DNA of 32,000 nucleotides from Geotalea uraniireducens Rf4 (GCF_000016745.1 NC_009483.1:4200001-4232000), one strand, 5' to 3'; positions 16,233 to 30,022 are shown, counted from the first letter of the stretch. A program made the numbers and translations. Notes: generated by a model not told the origin, from the sequence alone.

Positions 16233-18764
16233 TCAAGCGCGTAGTTTAAGACAGATCACCGCCGGTAGCGTGACCAGGGCGAATAAGGCGGTGGCGGCAA
16301 CGCCGTAATTGGTCGCCCAGCCGATGGAGGACATGGCGCCGTAGTCGGTGAACGCCAGCGAGCCGAAACCGGCAATGGTCGTCAATGCCGACAGGAGTAT
16401 GGCCCGTCCCGACTGGACGAACTGGTCCCGGCGCTCGTCAGCACCGGCCGCGGTCACCCGGTGAACGATATGCATGCCATAATCGCTCCCCATGCCGAGG
16501 ATGGTGACCAGCACCATGGCGTTCATGAAATTGAGCCGCATGCCGGTCAGAACCATCAGCCCGAGCATGGCGATTACCCCTCCCACCACGGGAAAGAGCG
16601 CATACCAGATGTCCCGCAAGGTTGAGAAATGGGAGAGAAGCAGAAAGAGCACCATCGCCCCACCCAGCACGAACCCCCAGAAGAAACTCTTCTTTACAGC
16701 ACTGCTCAGCTGGCCGCTGACCAGATCTGCGCTGGTCGCCCGCGCAGCCAAGTCAATGGCCGCCAGTTCCCGGAGAAAGGATTGCTGGGGGAATTCCGCG
16801 CCGCGGTAATTGATGAAGACGAGCAGGTGGTAGCCGCCGCTGTCCCTGACCAGGTGCCGATCCGACACCCCGCGTAACGGCGAACGGCCAAGGCGCTCGA
16901 TTCCTGCCGCCATGTCCACCGGTTGGGCCAGCAGCAGACCGGCAAGGCCGGCAAGGAAAGGCTCAAAGGCCTCCGGAGCAAAGCCGTTTTCCCGCAGGGC
17001 GCCCTGCACCGCCTGAGCCGGCTGCTGCGCCGCCAGGGCTCGATTCAGGGAGGTCAAGACCTCCCCCTGCGTTGTCCGGTCATTGAGCACCTGGCCGAGC
17101 GACGACCAGGAGACGATCTCACCGCGCCGCTGGTAACCCGCCAGCAGTTTTTCCACCCGCCCACCCTGCTCCATCACCTCCACCGGCGAACGCCCTGTCA
17201 GCGCCACCAGCATCTGTTTCGGGCTCAGGCTCAGGTGCTTCTCGATCTTCTCCTGGGTCAGGAACGCCTCAGAATGGCGCGGCTGGAGATTTTTCAACTC
17301 CCCTTCAAAGCCGATGAAGCATGCCGCGATCAAGAGCAGGCAGATCAGCAGCACCGATGCCGCCACCAGCCTGCGCGAGCGCTGCACGCAGGTTTCCCAG
17401 ACCCAGCCGAGGCCGAATCGCGGCAGAGGGCGATAGGATGCGGCGGGGAAGCGCTGTTCGGCGAACAGCAGGAGCGGCGGCAGGAAAAAGAAGGTGGCAT
17501 AGAGAGAAAAGATCACCCCGAGACCTACCAGCAACCCCAGTTCGAACAGGGCGCGCACATCCGAAACAGTGAGCGCCAGGAACGGCAAGGCGGTGGTGGT
17601 CGCGGCGGTAAAGACGCCATGGCCGGTCTCGACCATCGCCAGCCGCAGGGCCTCGCCGGTTTCCCGGCCGGCGCTCCGCTCCGTATAAAAACGGTCATAG
17701 AGATGGATGGAGTAATCGGTGCCCAGGCCGATGATCAACGCGGTAAAGGCGAAGGATATGATGCTGATGGAGGAGAGAAACAGCCCGGCGCTGCCAAGGG
17801 CCAGCACGACCCCGTAAAAGAGGATCAGCGGGATCAGGAGAGTGGGGAGGACCCGGCGATAGGTAAGGTAGAACAACCCCAGCACGACGAACAGGGAAGA
17901 GACCACGCAGGCGATGATGTTCTGCTTCATCACCTGTTCGTCGATCACCGCGCTCAGATGGGCGCCGGCGCAGGAAACCTTCACCCGCGCCCCGCGGCGG
18001 ATCTCATTGATGCCGGCGACGAGTTTTCTGGCAAAGGCCATGTTCTGCACCGGCTGGGCCGGTTCGGCGATCATGATCAGCACCCGGCCGTCGCGGGAGA
18101 GGAAGTAGGGTGAAGAGGGATCAAGGGCCAGGGCCTGGCTCCCCTTTTTCAGGCGCGGCAGGATAAACTCCCGCAGGTAGAGCGGATCGGCGGCAATTAT
18201 ATCACGCATTCCCATCCCCGCCTGGCTGGCCAGTTCGGTCCTGGCCCGTGCCAGCGCCCGGTCGAGAGCCGGCCTCTCAAAGCGCGCTGCATAGTCGCCG
18301 GCAGCCGCCGGATCGAGGAAGAGTTGCGGGTTGCCTACCGCATAGCCGATGAATTCGGCGAAGGAGGCGGCCTCAGACGTGTCGTAGACCCGGTAATTCA
18401 CCTTGCGGAATGCGTTTCTGCCATCAACCTGCAGCGCCCTGAGCCTGGTAGCCAGGTTTTCCGCCTCGCCTGGCAAAAGCGCCGGCTCCCCCTCCAGCAG
18501 GAAATAGACCTCTTTGGCGCTGCCGGTCCATTCCAGCGAATCGAGGAACAGCCTGAGCGGCCCTTGCTGCGCCGGAAACAGCTTGAAGATGTCCGCTTCG
18601 AAACGGGTGGTGGCGATGACAGCGATGGCCGGAATCAGCAGAAAGAGCGCGACGCCGACCACCCGCCGGGGGTAAGCGGAGGTGATACGGTAAATCCACT
18701 GGAGATGCCGGTTGACGAGCAGCTGGAAGGCGCGGGTTATGTTATGGAAGATGGCATGTGACAT
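16233..18764 (-). CDS. MMPL/RND-superfamily exporter (about 12 TM, two large periplasmic loops)
   Basis: Two homologous membrane bundles with GLGTDYSIHLYDRF and GMGSDYGMHIVHRV motifs. 843 aa. Starts 17 nt downstream of the LolA-like gene. Confidence 0.85.
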   Translation of the reverse strand: MSHAIFHNITRAFQLLVNRHLQWIYRITSAYPRRVVGVALFLLIPAIAVIATTRFEADIFKLFPAQQGPLRLFLDSLEWTGSAKEVYFLLEGEPALLPGEAENLATRLRALQVDGRNAFRKVNYRVYDTSEAASFAEFIGYAVGNPQLFLDPAAAGDYAARFERPALDRALARARTELASQAGMGMRDIIAADPLYLREFILPRLKKGSQALALDPSSPYFLSRDGRVLIMIAEPAQPVQNMAFARKLVAGINEIRRGARVKVSCAGAHLSAVIDEQVMKQNIIACVVSSLFVVLGLFYLTYRRVLPTLLIPLILFYGVVLALGSAGLFLSSISIISFAFTALIIGLGTDYSIHLYDRFYTERSAGRETGEALRLAMVETGHGVFTAATTTALPFLALTVSDVRALFELGLLVGLGVIFSLYATFFFLPPLLLFAEQRFPAASYRPLPRFGLGWVWETCVQRSRRLVAASVLLICLLLIAACFIGFEGELKNLQPRHSEAFLTQEKIEKHLSLSPKQMLVALTGRSPVEVMEQGGRVEKLLAGYQRRGEIVSWSSLGQVLNDRTTQGEVLTSLNRALAAQQPAQAVQGALRENGFAPEAFEPFLAGLAGLLLAQPVDMAAGIERLGRSPLRGVSDRHLVRDSGGYHLLVFINYRGAEFPQQSFLRELAAIDLAARATSADLVSGQLSSAVKKSFFWGFVLGGAMVLFLLLSHFSTLRDIWYALFPVVGGVIAMLGLMVLTGMRLNFMNAMVLVTILGMGSDYGMHIVHRVTAAGADERRDQFVQSGRAILLSALTTIAGFGSLAFTDYGAMSSIGWATNYGVAATALFALVTLPAVICLKLRA

Positions 18765-18781
18765 GATAGTGTTCGCCGGGT

Positions 18782-19390
18782 CTACTCCAGCAGGAAATCC
18801 TTATCCTTCAGCCCCGCGTTGCGGCGCATGTTGGCAAACCTGATGACGGTACGGTCACGGTTGCGCTCCTCGATGACGAGCCGCTTGATCTTCCCTTCGC
18901 CGTCAAAGCTGATCTGCAGCTCCTTTATCCCCCCCTTGCTCTTGGGAAAGACCTGCATGGTCCAGTTGCCGCCCTGGCGCTCCGCCCGCACATCAGCCCC
19001 CTCGGGCAGGGCGGTAAGCGGCTTGGCCAGGTAAGAGAACCATTTTTCCAGGCTCTCCTCCGGCGGCAGCACGATCCGGTCGGTCACCCCCTGCTCCGGC
19101 AGCCGGATCGTCAGCACATTGTCCCGCAGGAGCAGGCGGCTCGCATAGGGAGGAAAGAGCTCCATAAAGAACATGCCCGGCTTTTTGAAGCGGACCACCC
19201 CCTTGGAGACCATCTTCCGTTTCATCAGGGCCAGCTGCTTTTCCTGGACAATTTCTGCGGTAAAGTCGGACATGCCGGCAAACCCGTGCCGCAGCGTCTC
19301 CAGCGCCTCCAGCGCCTTATCCTGGGCAGCGTGGGCAGAAGGAGCGAGACAGGTAAAAATTATCAGTACTACCAGCAACACCTTTTTCAT
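18782..19390 (-). CDS. LolA-like outer-membrane lipoprotein carrier family protein
   Basis: Signal peptide MKKVLLVVLIIFTCLAPSAHA. LolA-type pattern F.AEIVQEK......VSKGVVRFKKPGMFFMELFPPYASRLLLRDNVLTIRLP. Confidence 0.8.
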   Translation of the reverse strand: MKKVLLVVLIIFTCLAPSAHAAQDKALEALETLRHGFAGMSDFTAEIVQEKQLALMKRKMVSKGVVRFKKPGMFFMELFPPYASRLLLRDNVLTIRLPEQGVTDRIVLPPEESLEKWFSYLAKPLTALPEGADVRAERQGGNWTMQVFPKSKGGIKELQISFDGEGKIKRLVIEERNRDRTVIRFANMRRNAGLKDKDFLLE

Positions 19391-19566: not shown

Positions 19567-20610
19567 CTATTCCTTGACGGTGTTGTCTTCTTCGCTACTA
19601 TCCGAAAACTCCGCCTCTAACTCCTCAATGGTTGGCAGGCTCCCTTTCAGGTTTTCCGGAATAGCGGCCACCAATTGATATTCGGATACACCCACCGGCT
19701 TTAAAATGTCTTTCAGTGCATACTCTGCAATTAATCCCTTTCGATCTTTGCAGAGAATCAGACCAATTGACGGATTATCGCTTTCATGCCGCATGGTGGC
19801 ATCCACAGCCGAGAGATAAAAATTGAGTTTCCCGGCATATTCCGGTTTAAAGGAGGTCGCCTTCAGTTCGATCACCACATAGCAGCGGAGTTTCAGGTGA
19901 TAGAACAGCAGGTCTATGAAAAAATCTTCTCCCTCCACTTCCAGGTGTACCTGCCGCCCAACAAAGGAGAAACCGGTCCCAAGCTCCAGTAAAAAACTGG
20001 TAATGTGCTTCACCAGTTCGCGCTCAACTTCACGTTCCTGGGCCTCATTGCCAAGTCCCAGAAAGTCGAACAGATATGGGTCTTTCAAAGTCTGATGCGC
20101 CAGATCGGATTGAGACGGAGTTAGAGTAGCGGCAAAGTTGCTGACAGCTTTTCCTTGTCGATGAAAGAGGCGAGACTCAATCTGCATTACCAGAATGTCG
20201 CGCGACCAGCCATGTTCGAATGCCTTGTGGATGTACCATTCCCGCTCTTCCGGTAATTTGACCTTCTGAATGAGGCGGACAATATGACCCCAGGGCAATT
20301 GTGAAACAAGCTGTTTCACTTTTTCCTCATCCGTGTACGCCTCGGCAAAAGCTCGCATAAACAGGAGGTTCCTGGGAGAAAACCCCTTCATATCCGGAAA
20401 CTCGGCACGTAAATCCCTTGCCAGTCGCTCTGTAACCTTGGCGCCCCATCCTTCTCGCTCCTGCCGTTCGAGGATGTCACGGCCGATCTGCCAGTAGAGC
20501 AGTACCAGTTCGTGGGTAACCGCCAGCGCCGCCCGCGTCCTGGCGGTGCGTATGCGCGCCTTCAGGTCGTGTAGAAAATGGTTGTAAGCGGTGGTGTCAA
20601 GGGTGGTCAT
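19567..20610 (-). CDS. DUF1016/YhcG-family PD-(D/E)xK nuclease domain protein
   Basis: ATG 20610 is preferred (GGAGA 5 nt upstream); the ORF track uses TTG 20622. N-terminal YhcG-like region (LLYWQIGRDILERQEREGWGAKV...LPWGH). C-terminal FIDLLFYHLKLRCYVVIELK nuclease motif. Confidence 0.85.
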   Translation of the reverse strand: MTTLDTTAYNHFLHDLKARIRTARTRAALAVTHELVLLYWQIGRDILERQEREGWGAKVTERLARDLRAEFPDMKGFSPRNLLFMRAFAEAYTDEEKVKQLVSQLPWGHIVRLIQKVKLPEEREWYIHKAFEHGWSRDILVMQIESRLFHRQGKAVSNFAATLTPSQSDLAHQTLKDPYLFDFLGLGNEAQEREVERELVKHITSFLLELGTGFSFVGRQVHLEVEGEDFFIDLLFYHLKLRCYVVIELKATSFKPEYAGKLNFYLSAVDATMRHESDNPSIGLILCKDRKGLIAEYALKDILKPVGVSEYQLVAAIPENLKGSLPTIEELEAEFSDSSEEDNTVKE

Positions 20611-20625
20611 GTTTTTCTCCAAAAC

Positions 20626-21618
20626 TCAATCATTCTTCCGATTGATCAGATTGACAATCACCTTAGCGATGGTCTCCTTCTCTTCCGGCCGACTTTCGGC
20701 AATGAGCAGGGTCAGCGCCACCAGAGCGTTGTCGGCCAGCCGCTTGCTGCCGTCGGGGCGGTAGAGGATGCCGTTCATGCCGAGGAAATAGATAAACAGG
20801 GCAGCGGCGATCCGTTTGTTGCCGTCACTGAAGGCGTGGTTTTTGACGACGAAGTAGAGGAGGTTGGCCCCCTTTTCCTCTACGCTGGGGTACAACTCCT
20901 CGCCGCCGAAGGTTTGGTAGATGGCCCCCAAGGCGCTCTTGAAACCCTGGTCCTTCTCGATACCGAACAGACCGTCGAAATCTCCCTTCATGGAGATAAC
21001 AATACCTATGGCTTCGTCATAGTCGATGACGTGCAGCGCCTGCCGGGTAGTCTCCTCGATGGACAGAGTGCCGTGGTCGTAGCGATCCAGGAGGGTCAGG
21101 GCATAAGCGTAATCGGTGATGACCCGCAGCACGTCCTTGCCGGTTTCATTGACCAGTTCCTGGTTGGCCAGGGTGCGGGCCAGCAGTTCCACGGTCCGGC
21201 GCATATCGGTCAGCTTTTCGGCCTGCTCACGGAAGCGCTGTTCGTTAACGGTGTAGCCTTTGACGATGTGGTCGCGCAGGACATGCGTAGCCCACTGGCG
21301 GAAGCGGGTGCCTTGCTGCGACTTGACCCGATAGCCGACGGAAATGATGACATCCAAATTGTAGTGGGCGGTATCATAGGTTTTTCCATCAGCGGCAGTT
21401 ATCCGGAATTTCCGGATAACTGAAGATTCATCCAACTCACCCTCGCGGAAAATATTCCTGATGTGTTCGTTGATTGTTCTAACATCCTTATTGAAAAGCT
21501 CGGCCAGTTGCTTTTGGGTCAGCCAGACGGTCTCTTTTTCGAGATGCACCGCAAGCGAGGTTGCCCCATCCGGGGTCTGGTACAGGACGACAGCATTGTC
21601 AGTAATGGTCATACTCAT
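20626..21618 (-). CDS. RhuM-family N-terminal domain fused to a Fic/Doc-type domain
   Basis: RhuM-like region: VVLYQTPDG...VWLTQKQLAELF...TINEHIRNIF...HYNLDVIISVGYRVKSQQGTRFRQWAT. The C-terminal core motif HAFSDGNKRIAAA has Lys at the Doc-type position (HxFxDGNKR). Confidence 0.85.
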   Translation of the reverse strand: MSMTITDNAVVLYQTPDGATSLAVHLEKETVWLTQKQLAELFNKDVRTINEHIRNIFREGELDESSVIRKFRITAADGKTYDTAHYNLDVIISVGYRVKSQQGTRFRQWATHVLRDHIVKGYTVNEQRFREQAEKLTDMRRTVELLARTLANQELVNETGKDVLRVITDYAYALTLLDRYDHGTLSIEETTRQALHVIDYDEAIGIVISMKGDFDGLFGIEKDQGFKSALGAIYQTFGGEELYPSVEEKGANLLYFVVKNHAFSDGNKRIAAALFIYFLGMNGILYRPDGSKRLADNALVALTLLIAESRPEEKETIAKVIVNLINRKND

Positions 21619-21683: not shown

Positions 21684-23132
21684 CTACCCTTCTGCAAATG
21701 CATCACGCAAGTGATTTTTGCCGTCGGCGGCAGCTGTTTCCAAAAAGGAAATAGCTGCCTGCTCGTCCTGCTCAATGGCAATTTCCACGGCACGCTTGGC
21801 GGTTTCGAGTAAAGCGGTGGATTGCTTTTTGAGCGCAAGAGAGGAAATAATCTTCTCTCGGATTTTCAACTGGGTGTCTTTGGCTACAAAAGGGATAAGG
21901 ACTTGGGCAACATCTTTCGGGTATAGGTGCGGCTGTGCCGAACCGGTTCTCATTTTCTCGGTTTGAAGACGACCAATAAATGAGTTAATTACAAACGCGA
22001 CATACACGGGGTCTTCAATAACCCGAAGAATGATAATATCTTGGCATGCGACCGCCTTTTTCTCAGAAAGATAAGGCTGAGCTCTCCCGATATTTGCACC
22101 TGTCCCATAGATGAGAATATCGTTCTCTGCAACAAAAGATGTTTCCTCTGTTGAGAAGTGCTTTATATTGGTTTTGTCGAAGTTGTCGTAATTCAGTCCA
22201 GCTTCAAGGATATGTTTCTGGGTAATCATATCGACGGTTCCGGTCTCGTCATAAATTGCAGCCATCCCGCGTGAATTATAGGTTTGAATCTCCTCAACCC
22301 GCTTGAAATACTCACCATTGCTCTTGATGAGTTCTTCTATTTCGTCAAACATCGGCTGGTAATACTCCGCATCCATACGACCAGATGCGACGAAAGACTC
22401 CTTGAACGATTTGATGTTGGTGTTTTTGGTGGTGGGGGTGTAGGTGGCGAGGTTTAGTGCGTTGAGCAACAGGGTTTCGGCATTTTTATAGGAAGCTATT
22501 CCTTTGGATGAAACTTCGACCGAGTTCTGATGCAATTCAACAATTCTATTCTGAAATTCCTGCCCGAATAGTGGGATGAAAACGTCTCTTATATCTTCCA
22601 AGTGAAGATCGGGTTGACTTGCACCTTTTTGCACGCGCAGCAATTGTGTTTGACCACTTTCACTATTGATAAATGTTGCCAAAACTTCCGGCGCAATTAA
22701 TTCGGTTCTTGGTCGAAGTAATGCGACGCTCACAAAAATACTGAAGACTGGCAAACCTTCTGGAACTACAGCAGCCCATCGCGGGCCAACACCAACTTTA
22801 CGAAGCAATACATCCCCAGGCTGGGGATCACATCTTCGATAAAGATTATCGTGTTCTTCAGAACTGATGAATCGGTGCCCAGCTTCAAGGCTTAGCGAAT
22901 TTTCCAATACATTCAGCGCGGAAAGAAATGGGACGCCATTTTCTGTATAACTCGGCGTGAAGTGTGTTCCGTCAGAAATCTTATTCGTAAGAGTAGAAAG
23001 AAGCACAGGACTTTTACTCTTTAATAAATTTTCCAAAGAAAGATATTTTTTCTGGTAATACTCAGCTTCCATGCGAACAGGCTTGTGAAGCGATGAAAAT
23101 AATATCTCGCTAATCTCAAGCCCTTCCAACAA
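21684..23132 (-). CDS. hsdS: Restriction-modification specificity subunit with two target-recognition domains
   Basis: Internal duplication RMEAEYYQKKY / RMDAEYYQPMF and KGASQPDLHLEDIRDVFIPLF / TGSAQPHLYPKDVAQVLIPFV. Starts about 30 nt after the methyltransferase stop. The start is uncertain: it is a TTG and the frame stays open upstream without ATG, GTG or TTG. Confidence 0.85.
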   Translation of the reverse strand: MLEGLEISEILFSSLHKPVRMEAEYYQKKYLSLENLLKSKSPVLLSTLTNKISDGTHFTPSYTENGVPFLSALNVLENSLSLEAGHRFISSEEHDNLYRRCDPQPGDVLLRKVGVGPRWAAVVPEGLPVFSIFVSVALLRPRTELIAPEVLATFINSESGQTQLLRVQKGASQPDLHLEDIRDVFIPLFGQEFQNRIVELHQNSVEVSSKGIASYKNAETLLLNALNLATYTPTTKNTNIKSFKESFVASGRMDAEYYQPMFDEIEELIKSNGEYFKRVEEIQTYNSRGMAAIYDETGTVDMITQKHILEAGLNYDNFDKTNIKHFSTEETSFVAENDILIYGTGANIGRAQPYLSEKKAVACQDIIILRVIEDPVYVAFVINSFIGRLQTEKMRTGSAQPHLYPKDVAQVLIPFVAKDTQLKIREKIISSLALKKQSTALLETAKRAVEIAIEQDEQAAISFLETAAADGKNHLRDAFAEG

Positions 23133-23161
23133 CGCCCGATAACGGGCTTCATCGAAAGGGC

Positions 23162-25378
23162 CTAAAGAAAAAAACTTAGGCGCTCCTTTTTGGCAAATTC
23201 GATAAAAGCCTCGGCAATGCCGTCTTGGGTCAAGCCGTCGTGATTGAACAGGTCGTGCTTGACGATCAGGTGTTCATGGGCATCCAGCACAAATTCGTTG
23301 AGGTCTTGCGGCGTGGCTTCGTAGCGATTAATCACTTCGGCGGCGATGTTCTTGGCAGGCGTCTTTTCTGCGCTGGCCACTGCCGGCAAGTCCTTGCGTT
23401 TCACAAATATCTTATCGCCGCTATTGTCCTTGCTCGGCTCCTTCATGGTGGCAAAAAAGATGTGGTAATCGTCCACCCTGGGGCAGAGCTTGTCGTCCCA
23501 CTTTTGCACGAATATCACGCTGGTTTTGGTGCCGGTGTGCGGCTTGAACACGTTGCCGTGCAACCCCACCACGGCCAGGATGCGGCAATGGTCGGCCAGG
23601 TATTCGCGGATGTATTTGTCGCTGGAGTTGTTAAAGCGGCCCTGCGGCAACACAATCGCCATCCGCCCGCCGGGCTTGATGAAGCTCAGATTGCGCTCGA
23701 TAAACAGGATGTCGCGACCGACATTGTTTTGGTCTTTGATTTTTACCTTGCGGAACGAGCCGTCGGCCATTTTGTAGATGGTATCAAAGCTGGCGCGCAA
23801 GCACTCCGGGAAAGTCGGCACGCGCTGGGTCGCATCCTCGATGTTCTTGTCGTTCTCATCGACCTTGCTAATCTTGTCCAGGCTCACGGTTCGTGCCAAT
23901 TCATATTTGGCCAGAATACGGGTTTCCTTGATGTCACCCGCAAACGGTGGATTGGCCATGAGGATGTCAAAGGAGAAGTCCCTGTCTTGCTCTTTGGCCG
24001 CTCTCTGTTTGCGCAGCTTTTTCCAGCCTTCGCTGTAAATGTCAGTCCAATTTTGGTCTTTGGTTTTTTCGTCCCAACGTTCGTAATCCAAGGTGTTGAG
24101 GTGCAGCACGTTGGTTTGGCCGTCACCGGCGATCAGGTTCAGGGTCCGGCCTACGCGCACGGCCTTTTCGTCAAAGTCGATGGCAAATACTTTATCCTGC
24201 ACGTAGTCTGTCTCGCGCGGTGTGCGTTGCTCTGTAGTGAAGTGATCGCTTATGGGTAAGCCAAGATCACGCCGGATCTGATGCCAGACATGAAAAATGG
24301 TGTGCACCGGAAAGCCGCAACTACCAGCGGCGGTGTCGATTATCGATTCGTGCTCCTGCGGATTGAGCATCTTGACGCACATATCAATTACGTAGCGCGG
24401 AGTGAAATACTGCCCTTTCTCCCCCTTGCTGCTTTTATTGATGAGATACTCGAAAGCCTCATCCACCACGTCCAGATTGGAGTTAAACAGCTTCACCCCT
24501 TCCAGTGACGATACGCACACAGCCAGGTGGCTGGGGGTGAGATCGATTTTTGCGCCATCGGGAAATACCCCTTCCCACTTGCCGCGAGCTTTGTCGAACA
24601 ACTCCTGGATTTTGGCTTTGAGTTCGGTTTCGGTGTCGCCATAGTTTCTAAAAATGAGATGGCGCTTTTTGTCGCGCCCACTTTCCATTTCGTCATACAG
24701 CTTGGTAAAGATTAGTTTGAACAGCTCCTCAAAGACATCCACGCCGGCGTTGGCGAGAACTTCATCCTCCATCTCCAGAATCAGGTCTTTGAGCGATTTC
24801 TTTTGATTGACCAGGACGTCGTGTTTTACAAGGTCGTCAAGCGTCCAGCGCGCTGTCAGGATGTCGGAAAGCTTTTCATGGGCCGAGGGGATGGCAGGGA
24901 TAGGCTCAAAGTAGTTCGGGTCTTTACGGTGATAGAACGAAATGCTGTCACCATTACTCCAGACCCCCATAGGTGCGCCACTGAAATTGCAATAACTTTT
25001 GAGCTGTTCTTTGCCATCTTTGAGTTTGGGCTTCTTTAACTCCACCAAGATGTAAGGGGTAGTTGTTTTGTCCTTATCAAAAACACAGATATCAACCCGC
25101 TTTTTTTCGCGACCACGAGTTACGTCGTATTCAAGAGAAAGGCGATTGATTGGATAGTCCAGATCATCTTTGAGCACCATCACATACAACTGGCGCACAG
25201 CTTCCTCGGGCGTGAGCTTGATCGGTTTGCCGCGCACCAGGCAAGAGACGTAAGGGGCGGGATTCTTCTCCGTCTCCTTCATCGTGATGCTAGCCTCTAA
25301 TGCTTGAATTTGAGCTGGTTTAAATTGCGTGAGCTTGTAGGCGCTGTCTTTGAGTAGTTCGGCCAGTGTGATCGTCAT
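23162..25378 (-). CDS. N6-adenine DNA methyltransferase with N-terminal PD-(D/E)xK (HsdR-N-type) nuclease-like domain, a putative R-M fusion subunit
   Basis: AGGAAA SD. N-terminal RVDICVFD...YILVELKKPK. Methyltransferase motif I IIDTAAGSCGF and motif IV MANPPFAG. 738 aa, with long spacers around motif IV. Confidence 0.8.
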   Translation of the reverse strand: MTITLAELLKDSAYKLTQFKPAQIQALEASITMKETEKNPAPYVSCLVRGKPIKLTPEEAVRQLYVMVLKDDLDYPINRLSLEYDVTRGREKKRVDICVFDKDKTTTPYILVELKKPKLKDGKEQLKSYCNFSGAPMGVWSNGDSISFYHRKDPNYFEPIPAIPSAHEKLSDILTARWTLDDLVKHDVLVNQKKSLKDLILEMEDEVLANAGVDVFEELFKLIFTKLYDEMESGRDKKRHLIFRNYGDTETELKAKIQELFDKARGKWEGVFPDGAKIDLTPSHLAVCVSSLEGVKLFNSNLDVVDEAFEYLINKSSKGEKGQYFTPRYVIDMCVKMLNPQEHESIIDTAAGSCGFPVHTIFHVWHQIRRDLGLPISDHFTTEQRTPRETDYVQDKVFAIDFDEKAVRVGRTLNLIAGDGQTNVLHLNTLDYERWDEKTKDQNWTDIYSEGWKKLRKQRAAKEQDRDFSFDILMANPPFAGDIKETRILAKYELARTVSLDKISKVDENDKNIEDATQRVPTFPECLRASFDTIYKMADGSFRKVKIKDQNNVGRDILFIERNLSFIKPGGRMAIVLPQGRFNNSSDKYIREYLADHCRILAVVGLHGNVFKPHTGTKTSVIFVQKWDDKLCPRVDDYHIFFATMKEPSKDNSGDKIFVKRKDLPAVASAEKTPAKNIAAEVINRYEATPQDLNEFVLDAHEHLIVKHDLFNHDGLTQDGIAEAFIEFAKKERLSFFL

Positions 25379-25452: not shown

Positions 25453-26334
25453 CTACAAATCATATTCAAAAAAATCCGAATCAACCTTTTTAATTTCGTA
25501 AATTGACTCTACAGAGACACCGACACCATGATCGATCATATATTCTGCGAGTTGGGAGCCATCGATAAGAATGATACGAGAAGAATACTCTTTTACTGAG
25601 GCAAGAGCGTCTTTGGTGAAATTAGAAGTGGTAATGAATATACCTTTTGAAGCTTTTTTTTTAGAAAGGGCGCCTGCAAATTGGTCGATGTCTGGGCTAC
25701 CAACGGGTTTATCAGTCCATCGTTTTGCTTGAATATAGATGTTGTCTAGGCCAAGTTTATCTTCTCTGATAACACCATCTATTCCACCATCGCCAGTTTT
25801 GCCAACCGCTTGACCAGCATCTTTCAATGATCCGCCATAACCCATTTTGACTAGTAAAAGAATTACGAGCCTTTCAAAAAACTGCGGTGAACATTTTTTT
25901 ACTTTATCAAGAATCTCAGAAGCTAATGCATGTCGAATTTGCTCATAATGCGATGCAATTGATTCAATTGGCGTGTCATGTGGCGTTGAGTCATTTTCTT
26001 TTTTACTCTTCTTCTTGCCTTGAAATTCCAGAAATTCCGCAAATTGTGACAAAAGTTTATTGTCAATTCGACTTGGCTTTTTCTTGAGAACGTCAACACC
26101 TCTTTGAGTAATTTTGAAAAAGCCGCGTCGAGTAGCTTCCAGTAGGCCGGCTTTTTGTAAATATGTTCTCGCCCATGAAGCTCTGGACGAAAATTTGAAT
26201 GTCCCCCCGCTTGGCAACAATTCTTTTCTTTCCTCTTCTGTTAGCTTGAAATCATCAGCCAACTGGTCAATCGCTGCGGACAGTTGCAGTTCGTTGCCAT
26301 TCGCTTTGGCTGCGATTTGCATCAATGGGAGCAT
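25453..26334 (-). CDS. mrr: Mrr-family (type IV, modification-dependent) restriction endonuclease
   Basis: N-terminal Mrr_N-type winged helix (ELLPSGGTFKFSSRASWARTYLQKAGLLE...RGFFKITQRG). C-terminal catalytic region GDGGIDGVI...IYIQAKRW. Confidence 0.85.
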   Translation of the reverse strand: MLPLMQIAAKANGNELQLSAAIDQLADDFKLTEEERKELLPSGGTFKFSSRASWARTYLQKAGLLEATRRGFFKITQRGVDVLKKKPSRIDNKLLSQFAEFLEFQGKKKSKKENDSTPHDTPIESIASHYEQIRHALASEILDKVKKCSPQFFERLVILLLVKMGYGGSLKDAGQAVGKTGDGGIDGVIREDKLGLDNIYIQAKRWTDKPVGSPDIDQFAGALSKKKASKGIFITTSNFTKDALASVKEYSSRIILIDGSQLAEYMIDHGVGVSVESIYEIKKVDSDFFEYDL

Positions 26335-26445: not shown

Positions 26446-26838
26446 TTACGCTGCCAGCTCTTGCAGCACCTCGGGATGTCGTGAAGCTACTTTCAGTAAG
26501 GTAGCTGCCGCTCCGGATGGCATTTTTCGCCCCTGCTCCCATTCCTGAAGCGTACGCACCGAAACTCCAAGAAGCTTGGCAAATGCAGCTTGAGACAATC
26601 CCGTTGCCGCTCTTGCTGTAGCGACCAGAGCTTTTTCAGCCGGGATGATTTCGTCTTTCTCTATTGTTCCGTCGCGTCTGGTAATAATGCGACGAACTGA
26701 CCCGTCCGGTTGTGTAATAAATTCGGTTTTCCTAGCCCAATCGCCGCGTTTCATTTCGCGTAAGGACTGCAAAAGCTCAGCGTTAAGATCCCGCTTTTTT
26801 TCCCATGCAGCCAGTTCTTTTTCAGACAATTTAACCAT
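26446..26838 (-). CDS. higA: HigA2-like antitoxin with C-terminal XRE-type HTH
   Basis: ATG 26838 is preferred (AAGGAGG 9 nt upstream). It overlaps the toxin stop as ATGGTTAA. HTH: TGLSQAAFAKLLGVSVRTLQEWEQGRKMP. Confidence 0.8.
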   Translation of the reverse strand: MVKLSEKELAAWEKKRDLNAELLQSLREMKRGDWARKTEFITQPDGSVRRIITRRDGTIEKDEIIPAEKALVATARAATGLSQAAFAKLLGVSVRTLQEWEQGRKMPSGAAATLLKVASRHPEVLQELAA

Positions 26839-27145
26839 TTTCAAATACCTCCTTGAGGCGTCTCAGCAATTTGGGGTCTATGTTTTCTTGTACGTTTTTC
26901 GCATACATTGTCACCAGCACTATCTGTCCGGGATTGAGACGTAGGAAATAAATCACCCGCACGCCTCCCCGCTTGCCACGTCCCTCGATTGCCCATCGCA
27001 GTTTCCGGCAGCCGCCGGAGTGAGGGATAACGTCGCCCTTATCAGGGTGTTCAGTCAGATAAAGCTGAAGTGCCGCGAATTCGTCATCGTTCAGATACTT
27101 GTCACGAACAGTGGCAAATGGATGCAATTCGATGAATGTGAGCAT
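26831..27145 (-). CDS. higB: HigB2/RelE-superfamily toxin
   Basis: 104 aa. GGCRKLRWAIEGRGKRGGVRVIYF...IVLVTMYAKN signature. The toxin-first gene order is typical of HigBA. Confidence 0.8.
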   Translation of the reverse strand: MLTFIELHPFATVRDKYLNDDEFAALQLYLTEHPDKGDVIPHSGGCRKLRWAIEGRGKRGGVRVIYFLRLNPGQIVLVTMYAKNVQENIDPKLLRRLKEVFENG

Positions 27146-27352: not shown

Positions 27353-27766
27353 TCACATCTTCCCCACCGCCAGGGTGAGCGTGGCAGAAGCAATGACCTT
27401 TCCTTCCGACCGCACCTCCCCCTCCACCAGGTGGAGCGTGCCGAAGGATTTGACGATGCGGGTCGCGACCAGGAGCCTTGCACCGGCAGGCACTGCGGCA
27501 GGCAGTTCCCCCCGCTCGATGGCGGCAAGGACCCCACCTGCCCCTTCCTGCTGGCCTGCGGCGATGCCGCCCAGCTGGGCCATGGATTCCAGGAGGAGCA
27601 CCGGCGGAAAACAACCGCAACCGGCAGTGACCACAACCTCACCTGTGGCGCACACCCCCGGTTCAAGGGTGATGATCCTGTCGACAAAGAGAAACGGGGA
27701 GCGATGGGGAAGATAGTGGGAGGGGTCAGGGTTGAACAGGGTCGCCTCCCCTGAAATCGATGGCAT
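27353..27766 (-). CDS. FabZ/FabA-like hot-dog fold (3-hydroxyacyl-ACP) dehydratase homolog
   Basis: LPHRSPFLFVDRI and LLLESMAQLGG match FabZ signatures. The usual GHFP reads GCFP, so the catalytic His appears replaced. This ATG overlaps the upstream gene by 41 nt, so the start is uncertain. Confidence 0.7.
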   Translation of the reverse strand: MPSISGEATLFNPDPSHYLPHRSPFLFVDRIITLEPGVCATGEVVVTAGCGCFPPVLLLESMAQLGGIAAGQQEGAGGVLAAIERGELPAAVPAGARLLVATRIVKSFGTLHLVEGEVRSEGKVIASATLTLAVGKM

Positions 27767-28775
27767 AATACGGTCCTTCAGGTGAGGCAGCCAGATGCAG
27801 GCCGTTGCAGCCGGGCTGAAGCGCGAGAACGAGGGCTGTCATGGCAAGCCCCCCCATGGCAATCGAGCGGCCGATGAGCGGGGCGGTCTCCAGCCGGGTA
27901 ACGGCCGGCAGGCGGTCCAGAAGCGGCTTTTCGGCAGCCGCGGTGCCGGACAGACCAACGAGGCTTGCGTCCGTCACCCCGGCAAGGAGCCGATCGGCCC
28001 CTTCCCCTTCATGACCGGGGATAAGCCTGCCGATGGTCCGCACACACCCCACGCGTCCTCTGGCCGGGGCATTGCGCCGTCGGGCATGCGACCCTCTTTC
28101 CAGCACCAGAATGCCCGCCCCTTCGCCGAAACCGGCCCCATGGCGCCTTAGCTGGCCTGTGGCCGCGAATCCTTTCAGCATGGCAGGGGTGAGTTCATCC
28201 ACGCCTCCGGTCAGGATAATGTCCGCCCGATCCTCCTGCAGGAAGCGGCAGGCCATCATGAAAGCCGACTCGGCAGAGCAGAAACGCTGGACAAATGTGA
28301 CGTTGGGCCCCTTCAGGCCGTGCTCGATGGAGGCGTTGCTGGCCGATGCATTGGGAACCGTGTTGGGAAAGAGCATCGGCGTCAGCCCTTCGGCGCCGGC
28401 GGTAAAGTAACCGCGGAGGAACTCTTCCGAGTTGGCGATGCCGCCGAAACCGCAACCGAGGACAATGCCGATCCGGTCGGCATCGAGAGTGGCCGGTTCA
28501 ATGCCGGCGTCCTTGAGGGCCATGCCCGTGGCGACAACCGCAAACTGGCTGCAACGGTCGAATTTGCGGGCCTTGAGCGGCGGTATGAAGTCGACTGCCC
28601 TGAAACCATCCGCCTTCCCCCACAGGTGCCCCGATTCGCCGAGGATATCCGCCGGGACAGGTTTAAGCAGGCTTTCGCCGCGGCTCAAGGCTTCGCGTAA
28701 GCTGTCGAGCCCGACGCCGGCCGCCGAGATGGCGGCCATGCCGCTGAGTACTATGTCGTTGCCAATATCGCTCAT
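27726..28775 (-). CDS. Beta-ketoacyl synthase-like protein lacking the His-His dyad (chain-length-factor-like partner)
   Basis: Thiolase fold: GPNVTFVQRFCSAESAF...ILTGGVDE...GFGEGAGILVLE. No HxTAP or NxHGT motifs in the shortened C-terminal half (349 aa). ATGA start/stop overlap with the upstream KS. Confidence 0.75.
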   Translation of the reverse strand: MSDIGNDIVLSGMAAISAAGVGLDSLREALSRGESLLKPVPADILGESGHLWGKADGFRAVDFIPPLKARKFDRCSQFAVVATGMALKDAGIEPATLDADRIGIVLGCGFGGIANSEEFLRGYFTAGAEGLTPMLFPNTVPNASASNASIEHGLKGPNVTFVQRFCSAESAFMMACRFLQEDRADIILTGGVDELTPAMLKGFAATGQLRRHGAGFGEGAGILVLERGSHARRRNAPARGRVGCVRTIGRLIPGHEGEGADRLLAGVTDASLVGLSGTAAAEKPLLDRLPAVTRLETAPLIGRSIAMGGLAMTALVLALQPGCNGLHLAASPEGPYYAIDFRGGDPVQP

Positions 28776-30022
28776 ATTCCCAACACCAGACTGGTGATGT
28801 TCCCCCCGAAAGCAAAGGAGTTGGAAAGCGCCACCTTCGCGGCGCTCTGCTTCGCACCCGGATGGCGGTAATCCAGGTCGCAGTCGGGGTCAGCCCCTCT
28901 GAAATTGAGGGTCTGCGGGATAACGCCCTCGTTCAGGGCAATGACCGTGGCCAGGGCCTCGATGGCCCCAGCCGCGCCAAGGCAGTGGCCGGTGAGGGCC
29001 TTGGTCGAAACCAGCGGCACCCCCATCGCTCGATTGCCGAATACCAGCTTCATCGCCTTTGTCTCCACCACATCGTTGAGCGGAGTCCCCGTGCCATGGG
29101 CATTGACCCAGCCGACCTCGTCAACGGAGACCCCGGCCTGGTTCATGGCTGCGGTCATTACCCGGGCCGCATCGGCGCCGCTCGGTTCCGGGGCGGTCAT
29201 GTGATAGGCCTCGCCGGCAACCGCATAGCCGAGAACATGGCCATAGACGCGTGCACCGCGACGTATGGCACTCTCTTCGTCTTCCAGCACCAGGAATGCC
29301 GCCCCTTCCCCCAGCGATATCCCCTGCCGTCCCAGGCTGAAGGGGGCGCAAGGTTCGGCATCGACCACCCGCAGGGAGTTGAATCCGGCAAAGGTGAGAA
29401 TGGAGAGACAGTCCGAACCGCCGCAGACAGCCGCCTTCAACCTGCCGGTGGCGATCAGGTCTGCCCCCCAGCCGATGGCGGTGGCCGACGAGGAGCAGGC
29501 TGTGGTGATGCTCCCCAGGTAGCCGCCAAGGTTGTAGGCGACGGCAATGGCCATCGAAGTCCGGTCAGGCAAAAGTCCGCGCAGGAGGGAAGGTTTTCCC
29601 TTCTTGCCGGCCAGGGTTTCTTTCAGCCACTCCTCGGCCTGGAGCATGCCGGCGGCGCCGGCCCCCATGGAAATGCCGATGTCGTAAGGGGAATAACAGC
29701 CGCAGACGCCGCTATTGTCCAAGGCCTCGCCGGCGGCGATGACGCCGAACTGGTCGGCGCGGGAGAGCTTTTTTGCCTGCTTTGCCGTGAAATGATCGAG
29801 CGGATCGAAGCCATGGACCTGGGCGCCGATCCCGGCGGCAAAAGGGCCGACATCGAACAGGTCGATCGGCCCAATGGCGCTGCGACCCTTCAGGAGCGCG
29901 TCGGTGAATGACGGCACATCTTTTCCGGCAGCGGAGAAGATGCCGAGACCGGTTATGGCTATTCTTTTACGTTCCATCATACTCTTCGTGGCGATCGCCG
30001 CCGTTTTCCTCACATGCAACAT
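28772..30022 (-). CDS. fabF: Beta-ketoacyl-ACP synthase II-like condensing enzyme
   Basis: Cys-His-His triad motifs ITTACSSSATAIG, EAYHMTAPEP and NAHGTGTPLND, plus GHCLGAAGAIE. The true start may be the ATG at 29977-29980 (MERKRIAITG). Confidence 0.9.
   Translation of the reverse strand: MLHVRKTAAIATKSMMERKRIAITGLGIFSAAGKDVPSFTDALLKGRSAIGPIDLFDVGPFAAGIGAQVHGFDPLDHFTAKQAKKLSRADQFGVIAAGEALDNSGVCGCYSPYDIGISMGAGAAGMLQAEEWLKETLAGKKGKPSLLRGLLPDRTSMAIAVAYNLGGYLGSITTACSSSATAIGWGADLIATGRLKAAVCGGSDCLSILTFAGFNSLRVVDAEPCAPFSLGRQGISLGEGAAFLVLEDEESAIRRGARVYGHVLGYAVAGEAYHMTAPEPSGADAARVMTAAMNQAGVSVDEVGWVNAHGTGTPLNDVVETKAMKLVFGNRAMGVPLVSTKALTGHCLGAAGAIEALATVIALNEGVIPQTLNFRGADPDCDLDYRHPGAKQSAAKVALSNSFAFGGNITSLVLGI

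Follow-up and report, generated by a model that had tools for sequence, protein, structure and literature searches.

A putative BcgI-like type IIB restriction-modification enzyme encoded by two adjacent genes of Geotalea uraniireducens

The RM and S genes

By sequence analysis we studied a 32-kb stretch of the Geotalea (Geobacter) uraniireducens chromosome, referred to here as the window, and within it two adjacent genes on the minus strand. One of these encodes a fusion of an endonuclease with an N6-adenine methyltransferase (RM, for restriction and modification) and the other encodes a specificity subunit (S) with two target recognition domains (TRDs). The sequence-only reading that preceded this work had claimed two open reading frames (ORFs) spanning 21684–25378 and separated by about 30 nt. 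Both were found intact at these positions, with 29 nt (23133–23161) between the RM stop codon and the S start, and all of the motifs quoted in that reading are present in the two proteins. The apparent start codon of the S ORF is TTG and no obvious Shine-Dalgarno sequence precedes it. The 738-aa RM protein is 100% identical to a G. uraniireducens protein annotated as 'N-6 DNA methylase'. A scan for promoters and terminators returned counts at chance level, so we make no claim about transcription units. The two genes and their parts are as follows.

23162..25378, minus strand: RM gene, intact ORF with an ATG start, 738-aa endonuclease and N6-adenine methyltransferase fusion
24884..25378, minus strand: predicted PD-(D/E)xK endonuclease domain, aa 1–165 (HSDR_N_2 match, AlphaFold2 fold, conserved tetrad)
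25130–25132 (E83), 25091–25093 (D96), 25040–25042 (E113) and 25034–25036 (K115), minus strand: predicted catalytic residues
24992–25006, minus strand: QxxxY motif, Q125–Y129
24479..24883, minus strand: multi-helical connector, aa ~166–300 (aligned to the connector of BsaXI; all-helical prediction of low confidence)
23399..24478, minus strand: gamma-class N6-adenine methyltransferase domain, aa ~301–660 (N6_Mtase and Eco57I matches)
24311–24343, minus strand: motif I, IIDTAAGSCGF, aa 346–356
23942–23953, minus strand: motif IV, NPPF, aa 476–479
23729..23896, minus strand: insertion after motif IV, aa ~495–550 (from motif spacing; predicted beta-rich mini-domain)
23165..23398, minus strand: C-terminal tail, aa 661–738, a variable linker followed by a conserved terminal helix
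23177–23224, minus strand: conserved terminal helix DGIAEAFIEFAKKERL, a putative S-binding helix
21684..23132, minus strand: S gene, intact ORF, 482-aa specificity subunit with two TRDs and two conserved helical regions
23052..23080: copy of a 29-nt direct repeat (family D1) encoding RMEAEYYQ, at the start of the first TRD
22356..22384: copy of the same repeat encoding RMDAEYYQ, at the start of the second TRD

The S gene had been called a classical duplicated specificity gene, and our results agree with this. The protein matches the PADLOC Specificity_I model (E 9e-47) and, in the PDB, the S subunit of PacII (E 1.9e-5); a Pfam search with S gave no match at the threshold used. The two halves of the protein align to each other over ~200 aa, with RMEAEYYQ at aa 20 and RMDAEYYQ at aa 252. 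The repeat copies that encode these motifs are 86% identical and are spaced 696 nt apart. Across related loci the median identity is 29% for S vs 70% for RM. Such slow divergence of RM and fast divergence of S would be expected if a constant catalytic subunit works with a diversifying specificity subunit. The usual S length at these loci is 460–480 aa. Longer S ORFs occur at six loci (694–720 aa in L045, L054, L069 and L084; 574 aa in L044 and L077), which suggests that extra domains have been fused to the specificity subunit there.

Domains of the RM protein

The N-terminal region had been read as PD-(D/E)xK-like on the strength of RVDICVFD (aa 94–101) and YILVELKKPK (aa 109–118). Pfam places HSDR_N_2 over aa 57–164 of this region with an E value of 5e-29. 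A full-length AlphaFold2 model of RM was built from 50 homologs. Because it was poor, although usable for coarse Foldseek ranking, we made a separate model of the N-terminal domain alone (residues 1–180), which reached a pLDDT of 89.4 and a pTM of 0.85. This model contains a helix at 57–72, strands at 80–88, 91–100 and 108–113, a helix at 122–133 and further strands, giving a core in the order alpha-beta-beta-beta-alpha-beta. As modelled, this is a PD-(D/E)xK core, and E83, D96 and E113-x-K115 are predicted to sit on the expected elements of it. At E<2e-3, a Foldseek search with the domain returned only nucleases: DUF820, Cas4, BsaXI, the restriction-endonuclease-like 3ijm, the HsdR fragment of V. 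vulnificus (3h1t) and BpuSI. DrdV and the EcoR124I HsdR were next in rank.

To describe conservation we used 74 aligned sequences, namely the query and 73 representatives of 50%-identity clusters that cover the N-terminal domain. Some members of this set are just 24–40% identical in the domain. Among the 74, D96 is invariant and the other residues of interest are nearly so (E83 in 72, E113 and K115 in 71 each, Q125 and Y129 in 68 each). Published work on BsaXI reports that cleavage is lost when E73, D90, E105 or K107 is changed to alanine, and a phmmer alignment sets D96, E113 and K115 of RM opposite D90, E105 and K107. The PD-(D/E)xK assignment is thus upheld by a Pfam match, a modelled nuclease fold and a tetrad kept in 71–74 of 74 sequences. 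Absence of the fold or of the catalytic residues had been named beforehand as grounds for abandoning it; both are found. RM carries an intact and conserved nuclease active site.

One alternative is that the N-terminal domain is a DNA-binding or regulatory module, and that the pair is an orphan methyltransferase used for phase-variable-style epigenetic control. The nuclease reading of the domain does rest on sequence and modelling, HSDR_N_2 domains occur in many contexts, and the 29-nt repeats in S could support shuffling of TRDs. By contrast, a non-catalytic domain would hardly keep its catalytic residues and QxxxY motif nearly invariant in distant relatives, BsaXI needs the homologous residues in order to cleave, and the gene lies in a defence island on mobile DNA. 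We regard the orphan methyltransferase as improbable.

The methyltransferase assignment is supported by Pfam matches of RM to N6_Mtase (E 1e-29) and Eco57I (E 2.5e-8), and all 50 homologs compared keep motifs I and IV unchanged. The spacers around motif IV had been described as unusually long, with extra segments. This holds for the segment after motif IV and does not hold for the one before it. From motif I to motif IV there are 128 aa in RM vs 93 aa in M.EcoKI, and this falls within the family range of 100–139 aa; a long spacer is also present in BsaXI. From motif IV to motif VI there are 98 aa in RM vs 41 aa in M.EcoKI. Among 103 representatives this second spacing is 50–59 aa in 70 and in the 90s in 6. 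Because a spacing of 98 aa is so rare, the insertion of ~45–50 aa after motif IV is specific to the subclade that contains RM. The block has a pLDDT of 79–87 in the full-length model and is predicted to be beta-rich. BsaXI has ~19 aa at this position and lacks the insertion.

The C-terminal tail had been left without an obvious assignment, and a plausible one can now be offered. Fifty homologs agree without exception at T717, I721–F725, F728, E732 and F736, and a helix at 721–731 is predicted at low confidence in the full-length model. Apart from BsaXI, the literature describes characterised RM+S type IIB enzymes as type I-like: their RM ends in a single helical tail, which forms a bundle with the conserved helices of S. 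RM proteins classed as 'RM, Type I-like, C-terminal tail' are 626–680 aa long, and RM of the window fits this class in its size and its terminal helix. The terminal helix of RM looks like the S-binding helix of these type I-like subunits, and we propose this role for it by analogy.

Gene linkage across the family and the type IIB assignment

To place the two genes in a family we scanned species-representative genomes, which gave at least 582 confirmed matches, and took the 80 best loci, whose flanks add up to 1.16 Mb, for analysis. Members of the clade, found in at least 582 species genomes, are 64–88% identical and occur across Proteobacteria, Bacteroidota, Firmicutes, Verrucomicrobiota and Chloroflexi. 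The 80 loci (64–85% identity) come from these phyla and from Myxococcota. S lies directly downstream of RM on the same strand at 76 of the 80 loci, and at the other four the contig ends too soon. The gap between the genes is mostly 29 or 32 nt across phyla, and otherwise the genes overlap by 4 nt; a gap this fixed may point to a conserved regulatory element or to coupled translation of the two genes. RM and S form a single chain at two of the 76 loci (L026 and L031). Single-chain relatives span 850–1210 aa, and many close representatives are 1114–1210 aa long. HSDR_N_2 was kept in all ten representatives tested, two of which also have Methylase_S domains. The linkage of RM and S is obligate.

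One single-chain homolog lies on plasmid pAQ6 of Picosynechococcus PCC 7002 (L007, 8001–11540). It is 1179 aa long, 60% identical and annotated as 'N-6 DNA methylase'. A methylome paper on PCC 7002 reports a bipartite GG(6mA)N5CTTC motif that has no assigned enzyme and is not linked there to the pAQ6 homolog. This motif could belong to it.

The sequence-only reading had stated that the island has no gene for HsdR or another superfamily 2 (SF2) helicase. This was confirmed in the window, where neither phmmer with two HsdR seeds (E<=1) nor a scan of long ORFs for Walker A and DExH motifs found one. That reading had also named dependence on an HsdR partner as a finding that would count against it. 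HsdR is absent from 79 of the 80 related loci within the sequenced flanks, and the single-chain RM-S fusions exist. The one exception (L033, 2023–4407; ResIII, EcoEI_R_C and HSDR_N) lies 5.6 kb upstream of RM and probably belongs to a separate type I system of the same island. No HsdR was found in six further contexts, including an IncF plasmid of K. pneumoniae. Homologs in Nitrosospira, Duganella, Pseudomonas chlororaphis and the K. pneumoniae IncF plasmid (53–78% identity) have RM followed by S, with no ResIII or helicase gene within 8–10 kb. At the level of the family, the pair is independent of HsdR.

At some loci a third gene of 190–265 aa directly follows S (L003, 13554–14129; L005, 13569–14357; L008, 11386–12177). 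It was also seen in 14 of loci L009–L088, for example L026 (12916–13704). The protein has the motif AEIDY..FVK.W.AFNAWYR in its N-terminal part and, in its C-terminal part, an R-x4-H motif that recalls HEPN RNases (MRCHLFHGE is one example). At these other loci it matched no Pfam family, and the gene is absent from the window.

The solved structure closest to RM is that of the RM subunit of BsaXI, a type IIB enzyme (8w0p, 8w2p, 8w2q), and the likeness to BsaXI suggested earlier is borne out by both sequence and fold. In a phmmer search of the PDB, BsaXI (8w0p) came first (E 3e-20), aligning in three collinear stretches that cover the nuclease, the connector with the N-terminal half of the methyltransferase, and its C-terminal half. 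With the full-length model, Foldseek likewise ranks BsaXI first (E 2e-14 over 731 columns), ahead of type I M subunits, BpuSI and DrdV. As in the window, S of BsaXI is a separate subunit (476 aa). The RM of BsaXI differs in being 916 aa long, with a 117-aa helical 'knob' in the methyltransferase domain and a long two-helix C-terminal 'paddle' needed for cleavage. Neither has a counterpart in RM, where only ~110 aa follow the methyltransferase core and no multi-helical module is predicted.

Closer in architecture, by description, is the BcgI-like class (BcgI, BaeI, SdeOSI, Hso63250II and HpyUM032XIII). These systems likewise consist of RM and S genes with a two-TRD S and no translocase, and their RM proteins have the same order of PD-(D/E)xK nuclease, helical connector, gamma-class methyltransferase and short C-terminal helical tail. 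RM from the window is longer (738 vs 626–680 aa), partly from the insertion after motif IV, and its S is of type I size. Single-chain type IIB and IIG enzymes (AloI, CjeI and TstI; MmeI, BpuSI and DrdV) share the order of nuclease, gamma-class methyltransferase and TRD but carry the TRD in the same chain, whereas S in the window is a separate ORF.

The type IIB features that could be checked are all present: a fused RM, a linked two-TRD S, no translocase in the window or beside the relatives, and homology to BsaXI. These data support the earlier suggestion that a fused R-M protein with a separate S recalls the BcgI and BsaXI type IIB enzymes rather than type I. We consider it likely that the two genes encode a self-contained, putative BcgI-like type IIB RM+S enzyme that has no ATP-dependent motor. 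The further suggestion of an uncharacterised variant was too strong, since RM and S have the architecture already known from BcgI-like enzymes. The design is ordinary; what is new is an uncharacterised member of the known BcgI-like enzymes together with a clade-specific insertion.

Several points weigh against this assignment. Identity between RM and BsaXI is just ~18–22%. The TM-scores of the N-terminal domain against known nucleases are moderate (0.39–0.45), and BsaXI E73 is not cleanly aligned, E83 facing BsaXI E75, two residues off, in the phmmer alignment. The full-length AlphaFold2 model has a mean pLDDT of 59 and does not establish the connector, the tail or the subunit interface. The best PADLOC model for RM (PDLC03034, derived from REBASE, 1065 bits) labels it a type I methyltransferase. 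The search for a host HsdR covered the 32-kb window, and the G. uraniireducens genome may have an hsdR gene elsewhere. Literature searches found no member of the clade shown to cleave or methylate DNA; searches for HSDR_N_2 fusions, for a Geobacter uraniireducens methylome and for a characterised close homolog found nothing specific.

The PADLOC label favours a different origin for the pair, namely a decayed or split type I system in which a plain HsdM and HsdS remain and HsdR is lost or distant, so that the pair either only modifies DNA or needs a remote HsdR. Type I systems do share the S organisation, have an HsdM homologous to the methyltransferase core and use the same family of nuclease domain at the N-terminus of HsdR (3h1t). 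RM has PDB matches to the HsdM-type 2y7c, 2ar0 and 5ybb, and its phmmer match to the EcoKI HsdM has an E value of 1.7e-14. Homologs are also named 'type I restriction enzyme M protein', the RhuM-Fic and DUF1016 genes just downstream of S are of kinds often embedded in type I operons, and a true HsdR lies 5.6 kb away at L033. However, the nuclease is fused to M in the window and is on R in type I enzymes, and the window has no SF2 motor. With the hsdM equivalog model TIGR00497, RM reaches 28.9 bits where the cutoff is 242.75, and the match covers the C-terminal part only. Unlike a plain HsdM, RM brings a nuclease domain, and the active site of this domain is strictly conserved. Both the general absence of HsdR from the related loci and further contexts and the existence of single-chain RM-S fusions argue for a self-sufficient unit. 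A type I remnant thus seems to us unlikely.

If the two genes do encode a BcgI-like enzyme, S with its two TRDs would read a bipartite DNA sequence, and two RM subunits would dock on one S, probably through their conserved C-terminal helices. On host DNA, the gamma-class methyltransferase of each RM would mark an adenine of one half-site, using S-adenosylmethionine. On unmodified incoming DNA, each N-terminal nuclease (E83/D96/E113/K115) would cut at a fixed short distance with Mg2+; the cuts would probably flank the site, and a second complex might assist. No ATP, translocation or HsdR would be involved. By analogy with BcgI and BsaXI we infer the (RM)2S stoichiometry, the two-sided cutting, the cofactor needs, a role in defence and activity in the host.

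A bolder interpretation is that the clade forms a separate lineage of RM+S enzymes without a motor, very abundant and so far uncharacterised, with a special cleavage geometry or a back-up abortive response. It rests on the beta-rich insertion and, in many loci, on the HEPN-like third gene, which might give a geometry or response unlike that of BcgI or BsaXI. We give this interpretation a small chance. If it were true, type IIB-like enzymes would be far commoner than the literature states.

No new mechanism is revealed by the BcgI-like assignment, and its consequences lie in how such loci are read. In annotation pipelines the family goes under 'N-6 DNA methylase' or 'type I M protein', and defence-system finders would take the locus for a type I system with a part missing. 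Read as a probable self-sufficient restriction enzyme, it alters the defence inventory of Geotalea and of hundreds of further species. The locus also flags a likely barrier to genetic transformation, and the family offers a large natural pool of S variants on a near-constant RM scaffold that would be useful for engineering type IIB specificities.

The surrounding defence island

RM and S belong to a group of seven genes, all on the minus strand. Across ~19.5–27.3 kb of the window the GC content drops from ~0.62 to 0.42–0.55. The other five genes of this island are as follows.

27145..26831, minus strand: RelE-like toxin, 104 aa, at the high-coordinate edge of the island
26844..26446, minus strand: MqsA/XRE-HTH antitoxin-like protein, 132 aa, overlapping the RelE-like gene
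26334..25453, minus strand: Mrr, with Mrr_N and Mrr_cat (Pfam, PADLOC)
21618..20626, minus strand: RhuM and Fic/DOC fusion (PADLOC PDC-S23), downstream of S
20622..19567, minus strand: DUF1016/YhcG PDDEXK protein (PADLOC PDC-S02)

The earlier reading was silent on the mrr gene, which lies 74 nt upstream of RM, so the island does hold another nuclease gene. With its position, its strand and its intact Mrr_cat, this gene raises the alternative of a three-gene system in which RM and S modify DNA and Mrr restricts it. Yet Mrr has the canonical type IV composition of Mrr_N and Mrr_cat, matches the PADLOC mREase_IV model (E 7e-76) and shares 37% identity with EcoKMrr, and in E. coli K-12 mrr likewise adjoins the hsd operon as an independent system. 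Homologs of the window Mrr were found at none of the 80 related loci, and an Mrr-like gene (with EcoKMrr as the query) at one. We think a three-gene system very improbable, and Mrr was dropped as the cognate nuclease for want of co-occurrence with the RM+S family.

Another alternative is that the pair is a part or remnant of a multi-gene system like the methylation-associated defence system (MADS), with MAD2-like and MAD5-like proteins that only mark self DNA while other proteins defend. MAD2 and MAD5 are the nearest curated NCBIfam families, MAD2 aligning to aa 44–509 of RM (from HSDR_N to motif IV) and MAD5 to the whole of S, and PADLOC matches mad2 and mad5 as well. The scores are far under the equivalog cutoffs, at 304 bits (E 1.4e-90) vs 720 for MAD2 and 117 bits (E 1e-33) vs 400 for MAD5, and far higher scores come from the PADLOC models for type I methyltransferase (1065 bits) and S (158 bits). 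When PADLOC was run on the seven island proteins it found mad2, mad5 and a weak mad1 on the HTH protein, and no mad3, mad4 or mad6–8. The family is normally a bare two-gene cassette. On the score cutoffs and the absent mad genes, MADS membership was dropped and is scarcely credible for this locus.

On one side the island adjoins genes for LolA-like and MMPL proteins, and on the other genes for a FabA-like protein and two ketoacyl-synthase proteins. Among the large flanking ORFs Pfam found MMPL, LolA, KAS and alpha-amylase only. The island borders show no tRNA or integrase, and direct repeats flanking the island are limited to short matches at chance level. The low-GC defence island splits a high-GC cluster (16233–19390 and 27353–30022) that consists of the two ketoacyl synthases, the FabA-like dehydratase, the LolA-like protein and the MMPL transporter.

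Some neighbours of RM and S recur elsewhere. A pair of a 104-aa RelE and an MqsA-like protein, similar to that of the window, also adjoins the homologous RM+S cassette in L006. RhuM-Fic homologs occur near six, and DUF1016/YhcG homologs near five, of the 80 related RM+S loci. In L046 the S ORF itself (637 aa) matches the RhuM-Fic protein of the window.

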